Source: Naegleria gruberi
Taxonomy: Eukaryota
DNA: 64,000 nt
Assembly: GCA_000004985.1 (NCBI GenBank)
Contig: GG738929.1
Direction: 5' to 3' (one strand)
How positions within the stretch are numbered: position 1 is the first letter of the stretch; the number at the start of each line of letters is the position of its first letter. Positions 26,508 through 64,000 of the stretch are shown here, in pieces. Position numbers and translations under genes: made by a program. The notes under the pieces are model-generated. The model ran no database searches. It was not told the DNA's origin and saw only the letters and a program-made list of their open reading frames with translations.

Positions 26508-26725
26508 ACAATTAAATCAAAGATATTTAGATTTCAATAAAGTATTGAATCTTAATACTTTTTGCCATCAAAACCTTCAGTTTAAGCGACTAGAAAATAG
26601 GGGGAACCTTTGCCAATTTTTCAATACCAAACAAAGGGATAAAAACAGTTTAATAAGTATTAAGTTATTTAATAAAATACTTTTAAGCAATCAAGATCTT
26701 GTTTTCAATCTATGACTAAGAAAAA

Positions 26726-26843
26726 GACTACAGCACCACAGGTTCCCAAGTTGTCTCCAACCTCAGTACTGATGTGGCTCGACGATGCTTAACTTCTCAA
26801 ATCGGACGGGATGAGGTGCATGAATCGTGATATGGCCGTAGCC
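26726..26843 (-). rRNA. 5S ribosomal RNA gene (copy 1), 118 nt, followed by a T-run Pol III terminator
   Basis: The reverse complement reads GGCTACGGCCATATCACGATTCATGCACCTCATCCCGTCCGATTTGAGAAGTTAAGCATCGTCGAGCCACATCAGTACTGAGGTTGGAGACAACTTGGGAACCTGTGGTGCTGTAGTC followed by TTTTTC. The universal 5S blocks are present: CTACGGCCATA, CATCCCGTCCGAT, GAAGTTAAGCA, AGTACT, GGAGAC, TGGGAA and GGTGCTGTAG. The two ends pair to form helix I. Confidence 0.8.
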
Positions 26844-29958: not shown

Positions 29959-30051
29959 ACCCAGTGTCAGGACTTGAACCTGAATTATGTGATTTGGACT
30001 TGTTGTTTAAGTATCGTCAGATTCACATGTCTTTCATTAGACTACACAGGG
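29959..30051 (-). tRNA. tRNA-like element, best fit tRNA-Gln(CUG) with a 23-nt intron after position 37; possible pseudogene
   Basis: A manual fold gives the acceptor CCCTGTG/CACTGGG (6 of 7), U8, and D-stem GTCT/AGAC. The anticodon stem is TGTGA/TCACA with loop ATCTGA|intron|A. The T-arm TCAGG-TTCAAGT-CCTGA is perfect. The D-loop is short and lacks GG, which is why I suspect a pseudogene. Confidence 0.3.
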
Positions 30052-33674: not shown

Positions 33675-35330
33675 CTACTCATAATCAACCAAATAATCAA
33701 CTAGAATTTCTCTAATACTGGAAGGAAATGATTTTGACATTACAATATTTTCAAAACTTCTTCCAGAGCTGTCTACAAACTTCTTTTTAGATCCTTTTTT
33801 TAAGAATTCCAAGAATAAATCAACCCATCCTTGTACATCAAACTTTACAAAAGCATTCAATTGACTTGATATAAAGATGAGAGGATCACAATAAGGTGGT
33901 TGAACATTTTCATCAAATACCTTATTAGAAAAATTGAATATTACTTGCACAAGTGTGTGAAACTCAGCCGGTATCCAACAGTCCCCCAATTGACAAGTGG
34001 TAATTCTGAAAATTAATGGAATTTCAGGATCATCCTCAATTTTGGAAAGGAGAATTTCAATATTGCTAATGAGTATATACTTTTTATGTCCACAGCCAAG
34101 TAGGGCCACACTTGCACTATTAATGATTTGCACAATGAAATCGACATTCAGATAGGGAATATTGTGATATTTCGAATAGGTATCAACCATGTCCAATTTC
34201 TTTGTTTCATCAATTTTATCAGTCCTATAAACCAAACAATCGACAAGGAAATTAGGAATTTCAAACCTGTACTCAGCAAGACAATATTCGAATCCATCTG
34301 AAATATCAGCAAATAATGAAATTCCAAATTTTCCTATCAAGTAATGACCGAGAAATCTTTGTGGTTTCTCAAAGAGGAATGATTTCAAGGAGGCATCTTT
34401 TGAAGTGTCATTCTCAATATGGTTTCTAATAGATTGAACGTTTTTAGGACAATATTTTGAAATAAAATCCAATACAATCTTGAAAGTTTCGAATGTGAAT
34501 GCATTGAATAATTCTATTGGAATCTCATTTGTTTCAGTAATTAATTGTAATTGATCTGACATTAGTAATGAGCTATCAAAATATTGATAAAATAACTGTA
34601 CGAATATCATTACCCTAAATCTTTGCAACAATTGACCACTTGCAATTTCTATACTAATCTTTCTTCCTAATTCGAAACTGGCTATTTTATCTTGTTTGAA
34701 AACAAGCTTCAAATCATATTTCACTCTCTTCATAAGCATTTCATTGATTGAATTACTTATATGCTGTTTCTTCAAACCATCTTTATGGAAGGAAACTCTT
34801 TCATTTAGGAATTCGCTAACTTTCTTCCACTTTCTTTCAAAAGCAACTATTCTATCAATTCTTCTTCCATCTCCTTCACCAAATACTTTTTGAAGAGGGA
34901 ATCGAATCAATTTCTTCAATTCTTTCCCTTCTCTTCCGATCAATTTTCCTATTACATAACTTTTCAATGATTTGTGATAGTCAATTGATTTTTTCTTGGC
35001 ATTTGACACTTTCTTTTCATCTTGAGTTATATCATAAAGTAATAATTCTTCAATAACATGATGATCATCACCAAATAATTTTCTATACAATTTCACACAA
35101 TAACTGGTCAATTTGACATTTGTCATTTCCTTTTCTAAATATGACATAAATAGAGCATGCCAAACACTTTGTGTCAATCCAGAGTGCCAGGTTTTATTTA
35201 TCAAAATAACTGGTAAAAGCCCATTCAATGGTAAAAATTTCAAGATATGACCAATGCAATCTCCGTAGAGTGATGACATTTTTTGTTGTGAAATTGATCC
35301 TTCTAATTGGACATGACAGGTCAATCTCAC
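33675..35330 (-). CDS. F-box-like domain protein (hypothetical, 551 aa)
   Basis: The N-terminal motif LYGDCIGHILKFLPLNGLLPVILINKTWHS is F-box-like. The probable true start is the internal M (MSSLYGD...) near 35279. The remainder is unrecognised. Confidence 0.45.
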   Translation of the reverse strand: MRLTCHVQLEGSISQQKMSSLYGDCIGHILKFLPLNGLLPVILINKTWHSGLTQSVWHALFMSYLEKEMTNVKLTSYCVKLYRKLFGDDHHVIEELLLYDITQDEKKVSNAKKKSIDYHKSLKSYVIGKLIGREGKELKKLIRFPLQKVFGEGDGRRIDRIVAFERKWKKVSEFLNERVSFHKDGLKKQHISNSINEMLMKRVKYDLKLVFKQDKIASFELGRKISIEIASGQLLQRFRVMIFVQLFYQYFDSSLLMSDQLQLITETNEIPIELFNAFTFETFKIVLDFISKYCPKNVQSIRNHIENDTSKDASLKSFLFEKPQRFLGHYLIGKFGISLFADISDGFEYCLAEYRFEIPNFLVDCLVYRTDKIDETKKLDMVDTYSKYHNIPYLNVDFIVQIINSASVALLGCGHKKYILISNIEILLSKIEDDPEIPLIFRITTCQLGDCWIPAEFHTLVQVIFNFSNKVFDENVQPPYCDPLIFISSQLNAFVKFDVQGWVDLFLEFLKKGSKKKFVDSSGRSFENIVMSKSFPSSIREILVDYLVDYE

Positions 35331-35418: not shown

Positions 35419-37542
35419 TCAGAAAATGTTATTTTGTTGTTGAACTTTGAAAGCATAAAGCCATGTTTTAAATTCATTCGTATTTTCCATTCTTGAAAAG
35501 GTATCTCTGAGATTTGCCAATATTTCACCTTCAAATACTAAAATCAAATCCTGAATTGTTTGTACAAAAGAATTTGATTCAGTGGATAATTCTGTTTCAT
35601 TTTGGTCTTGAATTCGTTTCCTTAATATGAAAAAGTTCTTTCTGCAAGTGCTTGAAATGTTCAATTCGAAAGTAGAGTTTTGATTCAAATAAACTTGTGA
35701 AATTTCATCCATCAACTCTATTGAAAGTTTCTTCTTTGATTTTAATTTCAATTCCAATAAAAAAGTGAAAAAGTTGTAATTCTCTAATGAAAGTTCCTTC
35801 ACACAATATTCTCTAATCAAATCTCTAAAATCCTGATGTTTCAGATAACTCTCCAGTTCACCTTCAATTTGTTGAGATTTGGAACTTTGAATTTTATCAA
35901 TCAAATATTTAATCACACAAGATCCACCACTCACTAGACAAAACAAGATAAACATGATTAATCTGAAAAAGTAAATAACATGATGATCTGAAATTGCTGA
36001 AATGATAATGAGAATTATAATGTTAAAACTGAGAAGTATCATATCTACTCTGATTAAGAATGGATCATCGAAGAATAACATGTATCTCAATCCTTTCTCT
36101 TTCCATTTCTTTATGTTTAGTATAAAATCAATGGATATTACTGACAATCCTAATATACATGCAATTCCAATAGATATTCCAGATAAAATGTTAAATACTA
36201 TATTTGGTGCCAATTCAACTATATAATACATTGCTATATATGGAATGGATATTAAAATATGAAGAAATAATGGAAAAATCAAAGTTATTACTATTCCAAG
36301 AATTATTCCACTTAATTTCAATAATGTTGAATTGATATTTTTAGAAAGTGAAAATAATCTATATAAATTATGTAAAAAATATAATCTTAAATAGGTAAAG
36401 AAATGAACTAGAATACAGAAATTCAATACAATTCCAGCAATTGCTAATGAAAGATTGAGAACTAACCAAAACATGTCAGAAGTCGCTATTTCAATAATAA
36501 TAATTGTTAGAGGTAGGTAAGGTGTGATAAGTCGTCGTTTTACAGAAGGTTGCCTTAATGCACCTGTGAAAAATAGAAAGATAAAGTGAATGATGACTAT
36601 TATAGTTTGAGGAATCAACCAATATTCGATATCATTCAAAACTATTTCAGAACAATATTCGAAATGGCAATTATGACAATTTGATGGAAGGTAGAGTGAT
36701 TCTAATTGTGAAATTGAAGAGTTTGAGTAAAATCCATAAGTTGATTGTATTTCCTGTTTGATAATATCTTGATTCGTCTTGAAATGTTATTAGAAACAAT
36801 ATTTAAGAAAACCTACTTTGGATAAAATTTTGAAATTATTCCCACAGCTTTTCAAACATTCCAAATCATAATCACTAACCATTTCTCCTCCATATTTCAT
36901 TATTCGAAATGAATTGAATAAAGGTGGTTCATAATCGAAAGATGTTAAAAGTGATGATGAATTCACACAAGATGGTTGACTAACTGAAATACTTAAATTC
37001 AATCCAGTTGCATTTTCATCCACTTGATAAACAGAATATGGATAAAGATCAATAAAGTTAAAGTCAGAAGTTTCGTATAAATGACCAACAGGTGTTCTCT
37101 TTCCACTTCCTCTATGATAATTTCTAAACATTTCCAAAAACAAATTCCTCGATGTAATGATCATATCAAAATCTTCTAAAATGTGAAATCTCTGCCCATA
37201 TCCCTTTACGAAACCATAAAAATTAACAATTCTTTTTTGATTAAAGTCTGAATTAAGTTTCGTCCAAAGTGTTGACATTTTTAGTGATGCTGGAATAAAT
37301 GCAATATCGAGTAAATTGTGTTGTTTCATTAATGTTGTTACATCTTTTGATGAAGTTAAATTGTAATTTTCTGACACATTTTTCCACACAACAGCTGTCA
37401 AGTAATCATTAACATAAACAAGAGATAGTGTCGAATCCAATTGATCAAATGTTTTACTGACAAATGAATGACCATTCACAACACAACAACAAACACAATA
37501 CAGAAACAATGTAAGCAACAATACCCACTTTAATTTAGCCAT
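35419..37542 (-). CDS. Receptor-like protein: signal peptide plus about 250-aa Cys-containing extracellular domain (37542..36817), joined to a seven-TM region with a C-terminal RGS domain (36777..35419); the join needs a 39-nt intron or a 1-nt frameshift
   Basis: The signal peptide is MAKLKWVLLLTLFLYCVCCCVVNG. There are about 7 predicted TM helices. The RGS signature is FRDLIREYCVKELSLENYNFFTFLLELK. The downstream part has no in-frame ATG. Its open frame extends upstream to 36777 with no ATG, and it joins the upstream ORF in frame via AAG|GTAGGT...TTTCAAG|ACG (36816..36778). Confidence 0.5.
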
Positions 37543-37726
37543 TTTTTAATCGACGAAAGGTCAACATGAATATCGAGAATCAAAAGGCCACAAAAAGAAA
37601 TGTCCTTCTAAAAGGTTCTCGGGAGAAATCATCAACACCTTTCGATAAATTGGGATTACAGCTTTTATGGAGCATCAAATCAGAAGCAATCAAGATCTTG
37701 TTTTCAATCTATGACACTAAGAAAAA

Positions 37727-37844
37727 GACTACAGCACCACAGGTTCCCAAGTTGTCTCCAACCTCAGTACTGATGTGGCTCGACGATGCTTAACTTCTCA
37801 AATCGGACGGGATGAGGTGCATGAATCGTGATATGGCCGTAGCC
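37727..37844 (-). rRNA. 5S ribosomal RNA gene (copy 2), identical 118-nt body to copy 1 (not compared base by base), with a T-run terminator
   Basis: It has the same sequence blocks as copy 1. The conserved 3-prime flank (about 40 nt) differs only by a 2-nt insertion, and the 5-prime flank is unrelated. Confidence 0.8.
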
Positions 37845-58198: not shown

Positions 58199-58255
58199 TC
58201 AATCTTCATCATCATTACACTCATCATATCTCATTACCATCATCTTATTCTTCTT
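58199..58255 (-). other. 3-prime terminal fragment of a minus-strand gene whose body lies in the assembly gap
   Basis: The sequence ...KKNKMMVMRYDECNDDED then a stop abuts the N-run directly. Confidence 0.3.
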
Positions 58256-61200
58256 NNNNNNNNNNNNNNNNNNNNNNNNNNNNNNNNNNNNNNNNNNNNN
58301 NNNNNNNNNNNNNNNNNNNNNNNNNNNNNNNNNNNNNNNNNNNNNNNNNNNNNNNNNNNNNNNNNNNNNNNNNNNNNNNNNNNNNNNNNNNNNNNNNNNN
58401 NNNNNNNNNNNNNNNNNNNNNNNNNNNNNNNNNNNNNNNNNNNNNNNNNNNNNNNNNNNNNNNNNNNNNNNNNNNNNNNNNNNNNNNNNNNNNNNNNNNN
58501 NNNNNNNNNNNNNNNNNNNNNNNNNNNNNNNNNNNNNNNNNNNNNNNNNNNNNNNNNNNNNNNNNNNNNNNNNNNNNNNNNNNNNNNNNNNNNNNNNNNN
58601 NNNNNNNNNNNNNNNNNNNNNNNNNNNNNNNNNNNNNNNNNNNNNNNNNNNNNNNNNNNNNNNNNNNNNNNNNNNNNNNNNNNNNNNNNNNNNNNNNNNN
58701 NNNNNNNNNNNNNNNNNNNNNNNNNNNNNNNNNNNNNNNNNNNNNNNNNNNNNNNNNNNNNNNNNNNNNNNNNNNNNNNNNNNNNNNNNNNNNNNNNNNN
58801 NNNNNNNNNNNNNNNNNNNNNNNNNNNNNNNNNNNNNNNNNNNNNNNNNNNNNNNNNNNNNNNNNNNNNNNNNNNNNNNNNNNNNNNNNNNNNNNNNNNN
58901 NNNNNNNNNNNNNNNNNNNNNNNNNNNNNNNNNNNNNNNNNNNNNNNNNNNNNNNNNNNNNNNNNNNNNNNNNNNNNNNNNNNNNNNNNNNNNNNNNNNN
59001 NNNNNNNNNNNNNNNNNNNNNNNNNNNNNNNNNNNNNNNNNNNNNNNNNNNNNNNNNNNNNNNNNNNNNNNNNNNNNNNNNNNNNNNNNNNNNNNNNNNN
59101 NNNNNNNNNNNNNNNNNNNNNNNNNNNNNNNNNNNNNNNNNNNNNNNNNNNNNNNNNNNNNNNNNNNNNNNNNNNNNNNNNNNNNNNNNNNNNNNNNNNN
59201 NNNNNNNNNNNNNNNNNNNNNNNNNNNNNNNNNNNNNNNNNNNNNNNNNNNNNNNNNNNNNNNNNNNNNNNNNNNNNNNNNNNNNNNNNNNNNNNNNNNN
59301 NNNNNNNNNNNNNNNNNNNNNNNNNNNNNNNNNNNNNNNNNNNNNNNNNNNNNNNNNNNNNNNNNNNNNNNNNNNNNNNNNNNNNNNNNNNNNNNNNNNN
59401 NNNNNNNNNNNNNNNNNNNNNNNNNNNNNNNNNNNNNNNNNNNNNNNNNNNNNNNNNNNNNNNNNNNNNNNNNNNNNNNNNNNNNNNNNNNNNNNNNNNN
59501 NNNNNNNNNNNNNNNNNNNNNNNNNNNNNNNNNNNNNNNNNNNNNNNNNNNNNNNNNNNNNNNNNNNNNNNNNNNNNNNNNNNNNNNNNNNNNNNNNNNN
59601 NNNNNNNNNNNNNNNNNNNNNNNNNNNNNNNNNNNNNNNNNNNNNNNNNNNNNNNNNNNNNNNNNNNNNNNNNNNNNNNNNNNNNNNNNNNNNNNNNNNN
59701 NNNNNNNNNNNNNNNNNNNNNNNNNNNNNNNNNNNNNNNNNNNNNNNNNNNNNNNNNNNNNNNNNNNNNNNNNNNNNNNNNNNNNNNNNNNNNNNNNNNN
59801 NNNNNNNNNNNNNNNNNNNNNNNNNNNNNNNNNNNNNNNNNNNNNNNNNNNNNNNNNNNNNNNNNNNNNNNNNNNNNNNNNNNNNNNNNNNNNNNNNNNN
59901 NNNNNNNNNNNNNNNNNNNNNNNNNNNNNNNNNNNNNNNNNNNNNNNNNNNNNNNNNNNNNNNNNNNNNNNNNNNNNNNNNNNNNNNNNNNNNNNNNNNN
60001 NNNNNNNNNNNNNNNNNNNNNNNNNNNNNNNNNNNNNNNNNNNNNNNNNNNNNNNNNNNNNNNNNNNNNNNNNNNNNNNNNNNNNNNNNNNNNNNNNNNN
60101 NNNNNNNNNNNNNNNNNNNNNNNNNNNNNNNNNNNNNNNNNNNNNNNNNNNNNNNNNNNNNNNNNNNNNNNNNNNNNNNNNNNNNNNNNNNNNNNNNNNN
60201 NNNNNNNNNNNNNNNNNNNNNNNNNNNNNNNNNNNNNNNNNNNNNNNNNNNNNNNNNNNNNNNNNNNNNNNNNNNNNNNNNNNNNNNNNNNNNNNNNNNN
60301 NNNNNNNNNNNNNNNNNNNNNNNNNNNNNNNNNNNNNNNNNNNNNNNNNNNNNNNNNNNNNNNNNNNNNNNNNNNNNNNNNNNNNNNNNNNNNNNNNNNN
60401 NNNNNNNNNNNNNNNNNNNNNNNNNNNNNNNNNNNNNNNNNNNNNNNNNNNNNNNNNNNNNNNNNNNNNNNNNNNNNNNNNNNNNNNNNNNNNNNNNNNN
60501 NNNNNNNNNNNNNNNNNNNNNNNNNNNNNNNNNNNNNNNNNNNNNNNNNNNNNNNNNNNNNNNNNNNNNNNNNNNNNNNNNNNNNNNNNNNNNNNNNNNN
60601 NNNNNNNNNNNNNNNNNNNNNNNNNNNNNNNNNNNNNNNNNNNNNNNNNNNNNNNNNNNNNNNNNNNNNNNNNNNNNNNNNNNNNNNNNNNNNNNNNNNN
60701 NNNNNNNNNNNNNNNNNNNNNNNNNNNNNNNNNNNNNNNNNNNNNNNNNNNNNNNNNNNNNNNNNNNNNNNNNNNNNNNNNNNNNNNNNNNNNNNNNNNN
60801 NNNNNNNNNNNNNNNNNNNNNNNNNNNNNNNNNNNNNNNNNNNNNNNNNNNNNNNNNNNNNNNNNNNNNNNNNNNNNNNNNNNNNNNNNNNNNNNNNNNN
60901 NNNNNNNNNNNNNNNNNNNNNNNNNNNNNNNNNNNNNNNNNNNNNNNNNNNNNNNNNNNNNNNNNNNNNNNNNNNNNNNNNNNNNNNNNNNNNNNNNNNN
61001 NNNNNNNNNNNNNNNNNNNNNNNNNNNNNNNNNNNNNNNNNNNNNNNNNNNNNNNNNNNNNNNNNNNNNNNNNNNNNNNNNNNNNNNNNNNNNNNNNNNN
61101 NNNNNNNNNNNNNNNNNNNNNNNNNNNNNNNNNNNNNNNNNNNNNNNNNNNNNNNNNNNNNNNNNNNNNNNNNNNNNNNNNNNNNNNNNNNNNNNNNNNN

Positions 61201-63023
61201 NNNNNNNNNNNNNNNNNNNNNNNNNNNNNNNNNNNNNNNNNNNNNNNNNNNNNNNNNNNNNNNNNNNNNNNNNNNNNNNNNNNNNNNNNNNNNNNNNNNN
61301 NNNNNNNNNNNNNNNNNNNNNNNNNNNNNNNNNNNNNNNNNNNNNNNNNNNNNNNNNNNNNNNNNNNNNNNNNNNNNNNNNNNNNNNNNNNNNNNNNNNN
61401 NNNNNNNNNNNNNNNNNNNNNNNNNNNNNNNNNNNNNNNNNNNNNNNNNNNNNNNNNNNNNNNNNNNNNNNNNNNNNNNNNNNNNNNNNNNNNNNNNNNN
61501 NNNNNNNNNNNNNNNNNNNNNNNNNNNNNNNNNNNNNNNNNNNNNNNNNNNNNNNNNNNNNNNNNNNNNNNNNNNNNNNNNNNNNNNNNNNNNNNNNNNN
61601 NNNNNNNNNNNNNNNNNNNNNNNNNNNNNNNNNNNNNNNNNNNNNNNNNNNNNNNNNNNNNNNNNNNNNNNNNNNNNNNNNNNNNNNNNNNNNNNNNNNN
61701 NNNNNNNNNNNNNNNNNNNNNNNNNNNNNNNNNNNNNNNNNNNNNNNNNNNNNNNNNNNNNNNNNNNNNNNNNNNNNNNNNNNNNNNNNNNNNNNNNNNN
61801 NNNNNNNNNNNNNNNNNNNNNNNNNNNNNNNNNNNNNNNNNNNNNNNNNNNNNNNNNNNNNNNNNNNNNNNNNNNNNNNNNNNNNNNNNNNNNNNNNNNN
61901 NNNNNNNNNNNNNNNNNNNNNNNNNNNNNNNNNNNNNNNNNNNNNNNNNNNNNNNNNNNNNNNNNNNNNNNNNNNNNNNNNNNNNNNNNNNNNNNNNNNN
62001 NNNNNNNNNNNNNNNNNNNNNNNNNNNNNNNNNNNNNNNNNNNNNNNNNNNNNNNNNNNNNNNNNNNNNNNNNNNNNNNNNNNNNNNNNNNNNNNNNNNN
62101 NNNNNNNNNNNNNNNNNNNNNNNNNNNNNNNNNNNNNNNNNNNNNNNNNNNNNNNNNNNNNNNNNNNNNNNNNNNNNNNNNNNNNNNNNNNNNNNNNNNN
62201 NNNNNNNNNNNNNNNNNNNNNNNNNNNNNNNNNNNNNNNNNNNNNNNNNNNNNNNNNNNNNNNNNNNNNNNNNNNNNNNNNNNNNNNNNNNNNNNNNNNN
62301 NNNNNNNNNNNNNNNNNNNNNNNNNNNNNNNNNNNNNNNNNNNNNNNNNNNNNNNNNNNNNNNNNNNNNNNNNNNNNNNNNNNNNNNNNNNNNNNNNNNN
62401 NNNNNNNNNNNNNNNNNNNNNNNNNNNNNNNNNNNNNNNNNNNNNNNNNNNNNNNNNNNNNNNNNNNNNNNNNNNNNNNNNNNNNNNNNNNNNNNNNNNN
62501 NNNNNNNNNNNNNNNNNNNNNNNNNNNNNNNNNNNNNNNNNNNNNNNNNNNNNNNNNNNNNNNNNNNNNNNNNNNNNNNNNNNNNNNNNNNNNNNNNNNN
62601 NNNNNNNNNNNNNNNNNNNNNNNNNNNNNNNNNNNNNNNNNNNNNNNNNNNNNNNNNNNNNNNNNNNNNNNNNNNNNNNNNNNNNNNNNNNNNNNNNNNN
62701 NNNNNNNNNNNNNNNNNNNNNNNNNNNNNNNNNNNNNNNNNNNNNNNNNNNNNNNNNNNNNNNNNNNNNNNNNNNNNNNNNNNNNNNNNNNNNNNNNNNN
62801 NNNNNNNNNNNNNNNNNNNNNNNNNNNNNNNNNNNNNNNNNNNNNNNNNNNNNNNNNNNNNNNNNNNNNNNNNNNNNNNNNNNNNNNNNNNNNNNNNNNN
62901 NNNNNNNNNNNNNNNNNNNNNNNNNNNNNNNNNNNNNNNNNNNNNNNNNNNNNNNNNNNNNNNNNNNNNNNNNNNNNNNNNNNNNNNNNNNNNNNNNNNN
63001 NNNNNNNNNNNNNNNNNNNNNNN
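58256..63023. other. Assembly gap (4768 N)
   Basis: Run of n characters. The track ORFs 58199..63043, 58240..63030 and 58245..63062 are artefacts of translating N. Confidence 1.
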
Positions 63024-63047
63024 TTGCCAAAAATCAAAAGCAAGAAA

Positions 63048-64000
63048 ATGAATCAAAGACAAACGTTTAATATTCCTTCATCATCATCCAATAATAAATT
63101 CTCTCCTCCAACATTTTCATCATTGATGAATAATACTAAATCTATTCATACTAATGGATTAATACAAAATACATCATCATCAAATAGTTTATTTAATATT
63201 AGTAGTAATTCTAAATCATCTAACTCATCTAATAGTAATAATAATGCAGATGATGATTTTCCTGATTTAGAAATTGATGATGAATTATTTGAATTAATTT
63301 CTCAAGAAGATGATGATCATCAAAATGATAAACCATCATCATCACATTCATTATTGATAAATCAATCATCTAAAAGTAGTAGTACAACAACAATCAATAG
63401 CTCTTCTTCTATTAAAACACCTCCTATTTTCATTCCACCTTTTAAATCTTTATTAAATAATTCTAATACTATTACTCCTCCATCTAATAATAATAATAAT
63501 AATATAAATAGTAATAGAGTTATTCCAATATTTAATTCACCATCAAATCAACAACAACAACAATTTAATAATATTAAACAACAACAACCTCCTACAACAC
63601 CAACTAAAAATCAAACAATATTTAATTCTAATAGATTAACACCTCCTTCATCTTCTAATATTAATAATAGTAATTTATTTACACCTCCTATTTTTAATTC
63701 ACCTACATCTCCTCCAAAATCTATTCATAATAATAATAATAATAATAATATGAATTCAATTGTTAATAATAATAATAATAATACATCTACTAATAATGGA
63801 AAGTCTAAATTTTTTATTAATAAGAATGATACATCATCTATTAGTAATAATAATACAAATATAAATATATCAAATAATAATAATAATAAATTTATATCAC
63901 CTATTAATAATAATATAACAAATAATAATAAATTTATAATTCCAGATTTAAAAAGAGATTATATTCTGAAACTATTGATAATAATCAAAATAATAATAAT
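63048..64000 (+). CDS. Low-complexity Asn/Ser/Pro-rich protein, 5-prime partial in this window (continues past the end)
   Basis: The ATG at 63048 is followed by more than 317 codons with no stop to the window end. The sequence is poly-N/S with an acidic patch DDDFPDLEIDDELFELISQEDDDHQ and repeated TPP(I/S)F motifs. Confidence 0.4.
   Translation, partial: MNQRQTFNIPSSSSNNKFSPPTFSSLMNNTKSIHTNGLIQNTSSSNSLFNISSNSKSSNSSNSNNNADDDFPDLEIDDELFELISQEDDDHQNDKPSSSHSLLINQSSKSSSTTTINSSSSIKTPPIFIPPFKSLLNNSNTITPPSNNNNNNINSNRVIPIFNSPSNQQQQQFNNIKQQQPPTTPTKNQTIFNSNRLTPPSSSNINNSNLFTPPIFNSPTSPPKSIHNNNNNNNMNSIVNNNNNNTSTNNGKSKFFINKNDTSSISNNNTNINISNNNNNKFISPINNNITNNNKFIIPDLKRDYILKLLIIIKIII

Follow-up and report, generated by a model that had tools for sequence, protein, structure and literature searches.

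The stretch of DNA analysed here, a segment of 64,000 nt from Naegleria gruberi (contig GG738929.1 of assembly GCA_000004985.1; hereafter the window), carries on its minus strand two adjacent open reading frames (ORFs), between positions 37542 and 35419, and the question they raise is whether they represent two genes or the two parts of a single receptor gene. The upstream ORF (37542-36790) encodes 250 aa with a hydrophobic, signal-peptide-like N-terminus and ends at a TAA codon (36792-36790), and the downstream ORF (36639/36786-35419) encodes a region with multiple transmembrane (TM) segments followed by an RGS domain. A preliminary description of the locus, made from the letters alone, had proposed that the two were joined by a 39-nt candidate intron or, alternatively, separated by a 1-nt indel. 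Taken together, our results indicate that the interval 37542-35419 is very probably one two-exon gene with a 39-nt GT-AG intron, coding for a 694-aa receptor composed of an ectodomain, a seven-transmembrane (7TM) bundle and an RGS domain, and a probable GTPase-activating protein (GAP) at the membrane.

The whole interval measures 2124 nt, a number divisible by three, and the only internal stops in frame are two adjacent TAA codons (36792-36787), the second of which (36789-36787) abuts the one that ends the upstream ORF. Beyond them the frame is open from 36786 to the final TGA, and thus extends further upstream than 36777, where it had been said to end. Because both ORFs share one frame, with nothing but the TAA TAA pair between them, a frameshift or 1-nt indel cannot apply, and this option of the preliminary description was excluded. 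A ciliate-type reassignment of TAA was also ruled out: the neighbouring long ORFs are free of TAA and TAG under the standard code (the ORF at 33675-35330, of 551 aa, is an example), and the organism is a Naegleria.

Both TAA codons fall inside an interval of 39 nt delimited by a donor GT at 36816-36815 and an acceptor AG at 36779-36778, and joining 36817 to 36777 generates an unbroken frame of 694 codons, with no other disruption in the flanking exons. These are the two sites originally proposed, at the distance and in the frame originally proposed, except that the donor context reads AAA/GTAGGT (the slash marks the exon boundary) and not AAG/GTAGGT. The structure of the gene is as follows.

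Exon 1, 37542-36817, minus strand: 242 codons from the ATG at 37542, encoding a signal-peptide-like hydrophobic N-terminus (~aa 1-23) and the greater part of the ectodomain.
Intron, 36816-36778, minus strand: putative spliceosomal intron of 39 nt, phase 0, GT...AG, GTAGGTTTTCTTAAATATTGTTTCTAATAACATTTCAAG.
Exon 2, 36777-35419, minus strand: 452 codons plus the TGA stop (35421-35419), encoding the end of the ectodomain, a Cys motif, the 7TM bundle and the RGS domain.

The downstream ORF had also been described as lacking an in-frame ATG, which is inexact: internal ATGs exist, the first of them corresponding to Met344 inside TM2, and more follow.

Conservation of the junction among paralogues

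When the joined protein was aligned with NAEGRDRAFT_64339 of N. gruberi, the two were 42% identical over 99% coverage, and the pairwise alignment was ungapped at the junction (ILSK/TNQD against LMSV/TNQQ); in total, three N. gruberi paralogues aligned through this point. When the two ORFs were aligned separately, the tail of the first (VGFLKYCF) and the head of the second (HFK) had no counterpart in NAEGRDRAFT_64339. An exhaustive profile search recovered 139 homologues, whose sources are N. gruberi, N. fowleri, N. lovaniensis, Willaertia magna and metagenomes; many of them are of about 700 aa and span both parts of the joined protein. No relatives came up when metagenomes were scanned with the four closest members. 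In a more distant relative, P0007, the whole ectodomain-7TM-RGS architecture is encoded by one uninterrupted genomic ORF of 2238 nt, with no intron.

The closest paralogue is NAEGRDRAFT_68613 (XP_002676220), which is 63% identical over its length and has the same domain order. Its reference model reads KLISM/VNQQII at the junction, that is, with an intron already removed. In a near-identical genomic contig from a metagenome (L001), the corresponding nucleotides read ATA TCT ATG/GTAAGTTGGTGATTTATTTCTAACAATCAAAAG/GTG AAT CAA CAA ATT ATT, so that the junction, ATG/GTAAGTTGGTGATTTATTTCTAACAATCAAAAG/GTGAATCAA, is interrupted by a 33-nt GT-AG interval with a consensus GTAAGT donor and an in-frame TGA. 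The two introns therefore differ in length, 33 nt in the paralogue as compared with 39 nt in the window, and occupy the identical phase-0 site. Both are 3n in length, both contain an in-frame stop, and both present the element TTTCTAAY about 10 nt upstream of the 3' splice site. A second contig (L003) runs on as ANQQIIRNEISS... into the stalk and TM1. Exact genomic look-ups for NAEGRDRAFT_64339, the product of the upstream ORF, the 220-aa C-terminal product and XP_002668661 gave no entry.

The junction was also located in an AlphaFold2 model of NAEGRDRAFT_64339, with a predicted local distance difference test score (pLDDT) of 86 and a predicted template modelling score (pTM) of 0.73. The equivalent residues, 231 and 232, sit in ectodomain blocks with a mean pLDDT of 91-93; a predicted helix (231-245) begins at the junction, and the ectodomain extends to about residue 280. 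The joined receptor with its 39-nt intron, as first proposed, is thus sustained by paralogues that are collinear over the junction, by an intron at the same site in the closest paralogue and by the best score of 16 splicing options, given below. The gene structure is established by homology, and removal of the intron in vivo is predicted from the sequence.

Two observations concern the comparison sequences themselves. The NAEGRDRAFT_68613 model starts at MSELW, without the signal peptide and the first ~87 residues that are encoded by L001 (521-1243), and it is likely, judging from these sequences, to be another incomplete N. gruberi model. The contig L003 (ENA ERZ929261) has, at ~240-270, lost 1 nt from the sequence of the TM1-TM2 loop with respect to the RefSeq protein, which changes RLFTPYLP to RLFTLFT..., and because of it the ORF of this contig is called from an internal position; the deletion reflects an assembly error or else an allele that is a pseudogene.

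Intron signals and alternative readings of the locus

The 39-nt intron holds a branch-point-like motif, CTAAT, with its putative branch A placed 12 nt away from the 3' end of the intron. For comparison, nine other introns in the window were judged credible; their donors are GTAAGT or GTATGT (two deviate at +5 or +6), their acceptors are mostly YAG, and their lengths are 47-128 nt. A search of the window introns for a YTRAY motif gave no clear consensus able to discriminate acceptors.

Several points weigh against a single gene of the structure and function proposed here. The donor GTAGGT departs at +4, with a G, from the GTAAGT or GTATGT present in the remaining introns of the window; AAG serves as acceptor, where TAG or CAG is usual; and the length of 39 nt lies under the local range. 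As had been stated in the preliminary description, which gave 47-92 nt for the others, it is the shortest intron in the window. Regarding the protein, its own Pfam RGS match (aa 550-633) fell slightly short of the gathering cutoff (22.7 bits, E 1.4e-4, against 23.9), and its GAP activity and regulation by a ligand are proposed wholly by analogy. The 7TM RGS proteins assayed in N. fowleri, from which the analogy is taken, carry other ectodomains (EGF, lectin, GPS) and may be close or distant relatives of the subfamily of the window.

With respect to intron length, the predicted introns of another heterolobosean, Acrasis kona, are reported to measure 9-95 bp (PMC11589745), and since the homologous intron at the paralogous locus is of 33 nt, very short introns are not out of character for the lineage. 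In the literature searched we found no direct genome-wide figure for intron length in Naegleria. RNA-seq of N. gruberi is deposited as PRJEB23822 (PMC6142364), and the protein database does not contain the spliced full-length protein of 694 aa.

The choice of splice sites was evaluated with the 16 in-frame GT-AG pairs that remove the stops, using global alignment scores against three paralogues. The 39-nt pair scored highest against each of the three (total 4928), followed, among the readings considered here, by read-through of the stops (4868) and by a 63-nt intron (4829). The latter would belong to the same gene and use the same donor with a downstream acceptor, AAACAG/ at 36754, as the main or an alternative isoform, with loss of the residues TNQDIIKQ. 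It is in frame, its CAG acceptor is more typical and its length is within the 47-128 nt of the window. However, the eight residues that it would delete are conserved (VNQQIIRN, TNQQLFRT and YNQQIILN in the paralogues), its score was lower against all three of them, and exon 2 of the paralogous locus begins at the equivalent xNQ. Moreover, the AG at 36779-36778 is the first one downstream of the CTAAT motif and precedes the 63-nt acceptor. Use of this downstream acceptor is, in our assessment, distinctly improbable.

The current RefSeq/JGI annotation places two genes at the locus, a secreted 250-aa protein and a 220-aa RGS protein, described as two 'predicted proteins' on one scaffold of 189,881 bp. 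The product of the upstream ORF is identical, tail VGFLKYCF included, to the first of them, XP_002669296 (NAEGRDRAFT_75820, 250 aa, 37542-36790), which extends into the intron, and the last 220 residues of the joined protein are identical to the second, XP_002669295 (NAEGRDRAFT_75819, 36081-35419), which begins at an internal Met (ATG at 36081). In favour of two genes, the upstream ORF has an ATG and a stop of its own. Against them, the annotation strands about 700 nt of open coding sequence that is conserved in the family (stalk and TM1-TM5), the start of the 220-aa model falls in the middle of the invariant motif GLRYMLFFDDPF, the 8-residue tail of the upstream ORF is not conserved, and the full-length relatives are all collinear over both pieces. 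That the annotated pair is correct is therefore highly improbable. The sequence between the two reference models is the following.

Unannotated coding stretch, 36082-36789, minus strand: ~700 nt comprising a portion of the intron together with the stalk and TM1-TM5.

An equally slight probability attaches to the absence of any intron, with TAA TAA being a sequencing or assembly error, a site of read-through or the mark of a recent pseudogene: the shared frame would give a continuous protein on read-through, with a score little under that of the spliced form, but with two adjacent stops the error or the read-through would have to happen twice, independently, the 13 residues added by read-through have no counterpart in any relative, the flanking exons are otherwise undisrupted, the independent paralogous locus has an in-frame stop within a GT...AG interval at the same site, and the reference protein NAEGRDRAFT_75820 stops at the same codon (although it perhaps derives from the same assembly as the window).

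The spliced two-exon gene has consequences for the annotation, since its repair merges XP_002669296 with XP_002669295 and restores five TM helices. This bears on the counts and phylogenies of the very large G-protein/RGS repertoire of Naegleria, for which 229 RGS genes have been reported in N. gruberi (PMC5784254). Naegleria appears to have introns as short as 33-39 nt, which can escape gene prediction; where the length is 3n and a stop lies in frame, the ORF upstream takes on the appearance of a complete one. A separate observation on this gene is XP_002668661, in which part of exon 1 (186 aa) recurs, with the substitution L8M, as a second copy or haplotype at the end of a 14.9-kb scaffold.

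Protein domains and neighbouring features

Exon 2 encodes three recognizable elements in addition to the end of the ectodomain.

Juxtamembrane Cys motif, 36652-36690, minus strand: LPSNCHNCHFEYC, aa 272-284, with C276, C279 and C284 invariant in the four closest members (family alignments).
Seven-transmembrane region, 35911-36618, minus strand: aa 296-531.
RGS domain, cytosolic, 35434-35862, minus strand: ~aa 548-690, with conserved E570-x-S572-x-E574-N575, E613-x-N615 and D667-T668-x-x-R671.

The predicted topology consists of seven TM helices, an N-terminus on the outer side and an RGS domain in the cytosol, and the signal peptide, the seven helices and the C-terminal RGS domain named in the preliminary description were all recovered in the joined product. 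The Pfam RGS model was matched by 23 of the 32 family members (best E 2e-9), and the profile of the family matched the solved RGS17, RGS10, RGS8 and RGS1 domains with E values from 2e-8 to 1e-5. Conserved motifs of the family are E-x-S-x-E-N, E-[LV]-N and D-T-x-x-R, and in the 32-member alignment E574-N575, N615 and D667...R671 are invariant or nearly so. These residues correspond to the contacts of RGS4 with G-alpha, E87/N88, N128 and D163/R167, a correspondence for which an alignment with RGS17 was also used.

The ectodomain is a single alpha/beta domain of ~270 aa, whose similarity to type II periplasmic binding proteins is weak but uniform, and it is possibly periplasmic-binding-protein-like and of a ligand-binding type. 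It is followed, before TM1, by a stalk with the short motif LPSxCxxCxxxxC. The 7TM bundle has a G-protein-coupled receptor (GPCR) fold, a similarity that does not discriminate between GPCR classes. The product is best assigned, as a further member, to the 7TM-RGS family of Naegleria, on which earlier work includes assays of the N. fowleri proteins.

The 5S rRNA gene that had been noticed about 200 bp upstream of the receptor gene is present.

5S rRNA gene, 37726-37844, minus strand, as the receptor gene: Rfam RF00001, 100.3 bits, E 1e-20; 183 nt between the gene and the receptor ATG.

Nothing links the two functionally, and the 5S gene is a mere neighbour, reflecting a compact genome. A second, identical 5S rRNA gene is located 11 kb away (26725-26843, minus strand), with a different downstream neighbour. 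The two copies share the gene and about 45 nt of 3' flank past the T-run, and nothing beyond; a conserved 3' flank thus forms part of the dispersed 5S unit.

Three further observations were made elsewhere in the window. At 29959-30051 (minus strand), Rfam identifies a tRNA of 93 nt (43.2 bits), absent from the ARAGORN predictions, and the gene probably contains an intron. At 58199-63062 (minus strand) there are three overlapping ORFs of ~1600 aa each, one in every minus-strand frame, a pattern suggestive of a coding region that is long and either of low complexity or rich in repeats. The G+C content of the window is 27%, while that reported for the N. gruberi genome is 35% (PMC9928731).

Proposed function and comparison with known systems

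By analogy with the 7TM RGS proteins of N. fowleri and with AtRGS1, the RGS domain would most likely speed GTP hydrolysis on G-alpha subunits, some of them self-activating, at the membrane, and an extracellular cue bound by the ectodomain may modulate either this GAP activity or the localization of the protein. A possible solute-binding type of ectodomain is a lead on what the orphan 7TM-RGS receptors sense, and related proteins are present in N. fowleri, where this signalling family has been discussed as drug-target space (PMC9283941).

A more far-reaching idea, which we regard as rather unlikely, is that the subfamily represents an undescribed design, in which a solute-binding-like ectodomain of the Venus-flytrap (VFT) type is combined with a GPCR-fold 7TM bundle and an RGS output, and in which the retained 33-39 nt intron acts as a switch. 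If this were so, Naegleria and Willaertia would possess a 'class-C-like' sensor of small molecules that turns G proteins off, not on, and intron retention would yield a secreted, soluble 250-aa ectodomain in place of the membrane receptor. In the literature searched, no paper joins 7TM-RGS proteins with a periplasmic-binding-protein or Venus-flytrap domain.

Class C GPCRs are recognized by a type I VFT, a cysteine-rich domain (CRD) with nine Cys and a class C 7TM region. The protein of the window was rejected as a member of this class: the weak matches of its ectodomain are to type II periplasmic binding proteins, its stalk has three conserved Cys and the similarity of its 7TM region is not class-specific. 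As compared with class C receptors (mGlu, TAS1R, GABA-B and GPR158), the protein of the window has a linker with three conserved Cys and not a nine-Cys CRD, and its output is an RGS domain (GAP) and not that of a receptor that activates G proteins.

AtRGS1 is the prototype of 7TM-RGS proteins and, like the protein of the window, consists of a 7TM region followed by a cytosolic RGS domain, a comparison made at the level of layout. AtRGS1 is not known to have a signal peptide or a large folded ectodomain. The description of the locus as 'AtRGS1-like' was therefore correct for the 7TM plus RGS layout and not for the rest, as the protein of the window also has a large folded ectodomain. The presumed mode of action is also common to the two, a receptor-like GAP acting on a self-activating G-alpha (PMC3386157; PMC9283941), and proteins of 7TM-RGS architecture occur widely in organisms other than animals (PMC3971589).

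The Naegleria 7TM RGS family is the better comparison for this gene, being closer than AtRGS1. The genome of N. fowleri has 28 7TM RGS genes, and Nf 7TM RGS1-4 have been studied (JBC 2022, PMC9283941); the isolated RGS domains of three of these proteins are GAPs for Nf G-alpha subunits, self-activating ones included (PMC9283941). As observed for the protein of the window, the N. fowleri proteins place their N-terminus outside the cell, followed by seven TM helices and, at the C-terminus, an RGS domain, and N. fowleri also has homologues of the window protein itself, named 'RGS domain-containing protein'. The two differ in the extracellular part, where EGF-like repeats, lectin domains and GPS motifs have been described in the N. 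fowleri proteins, while the protein of the window presents a single alpha/beta domain.
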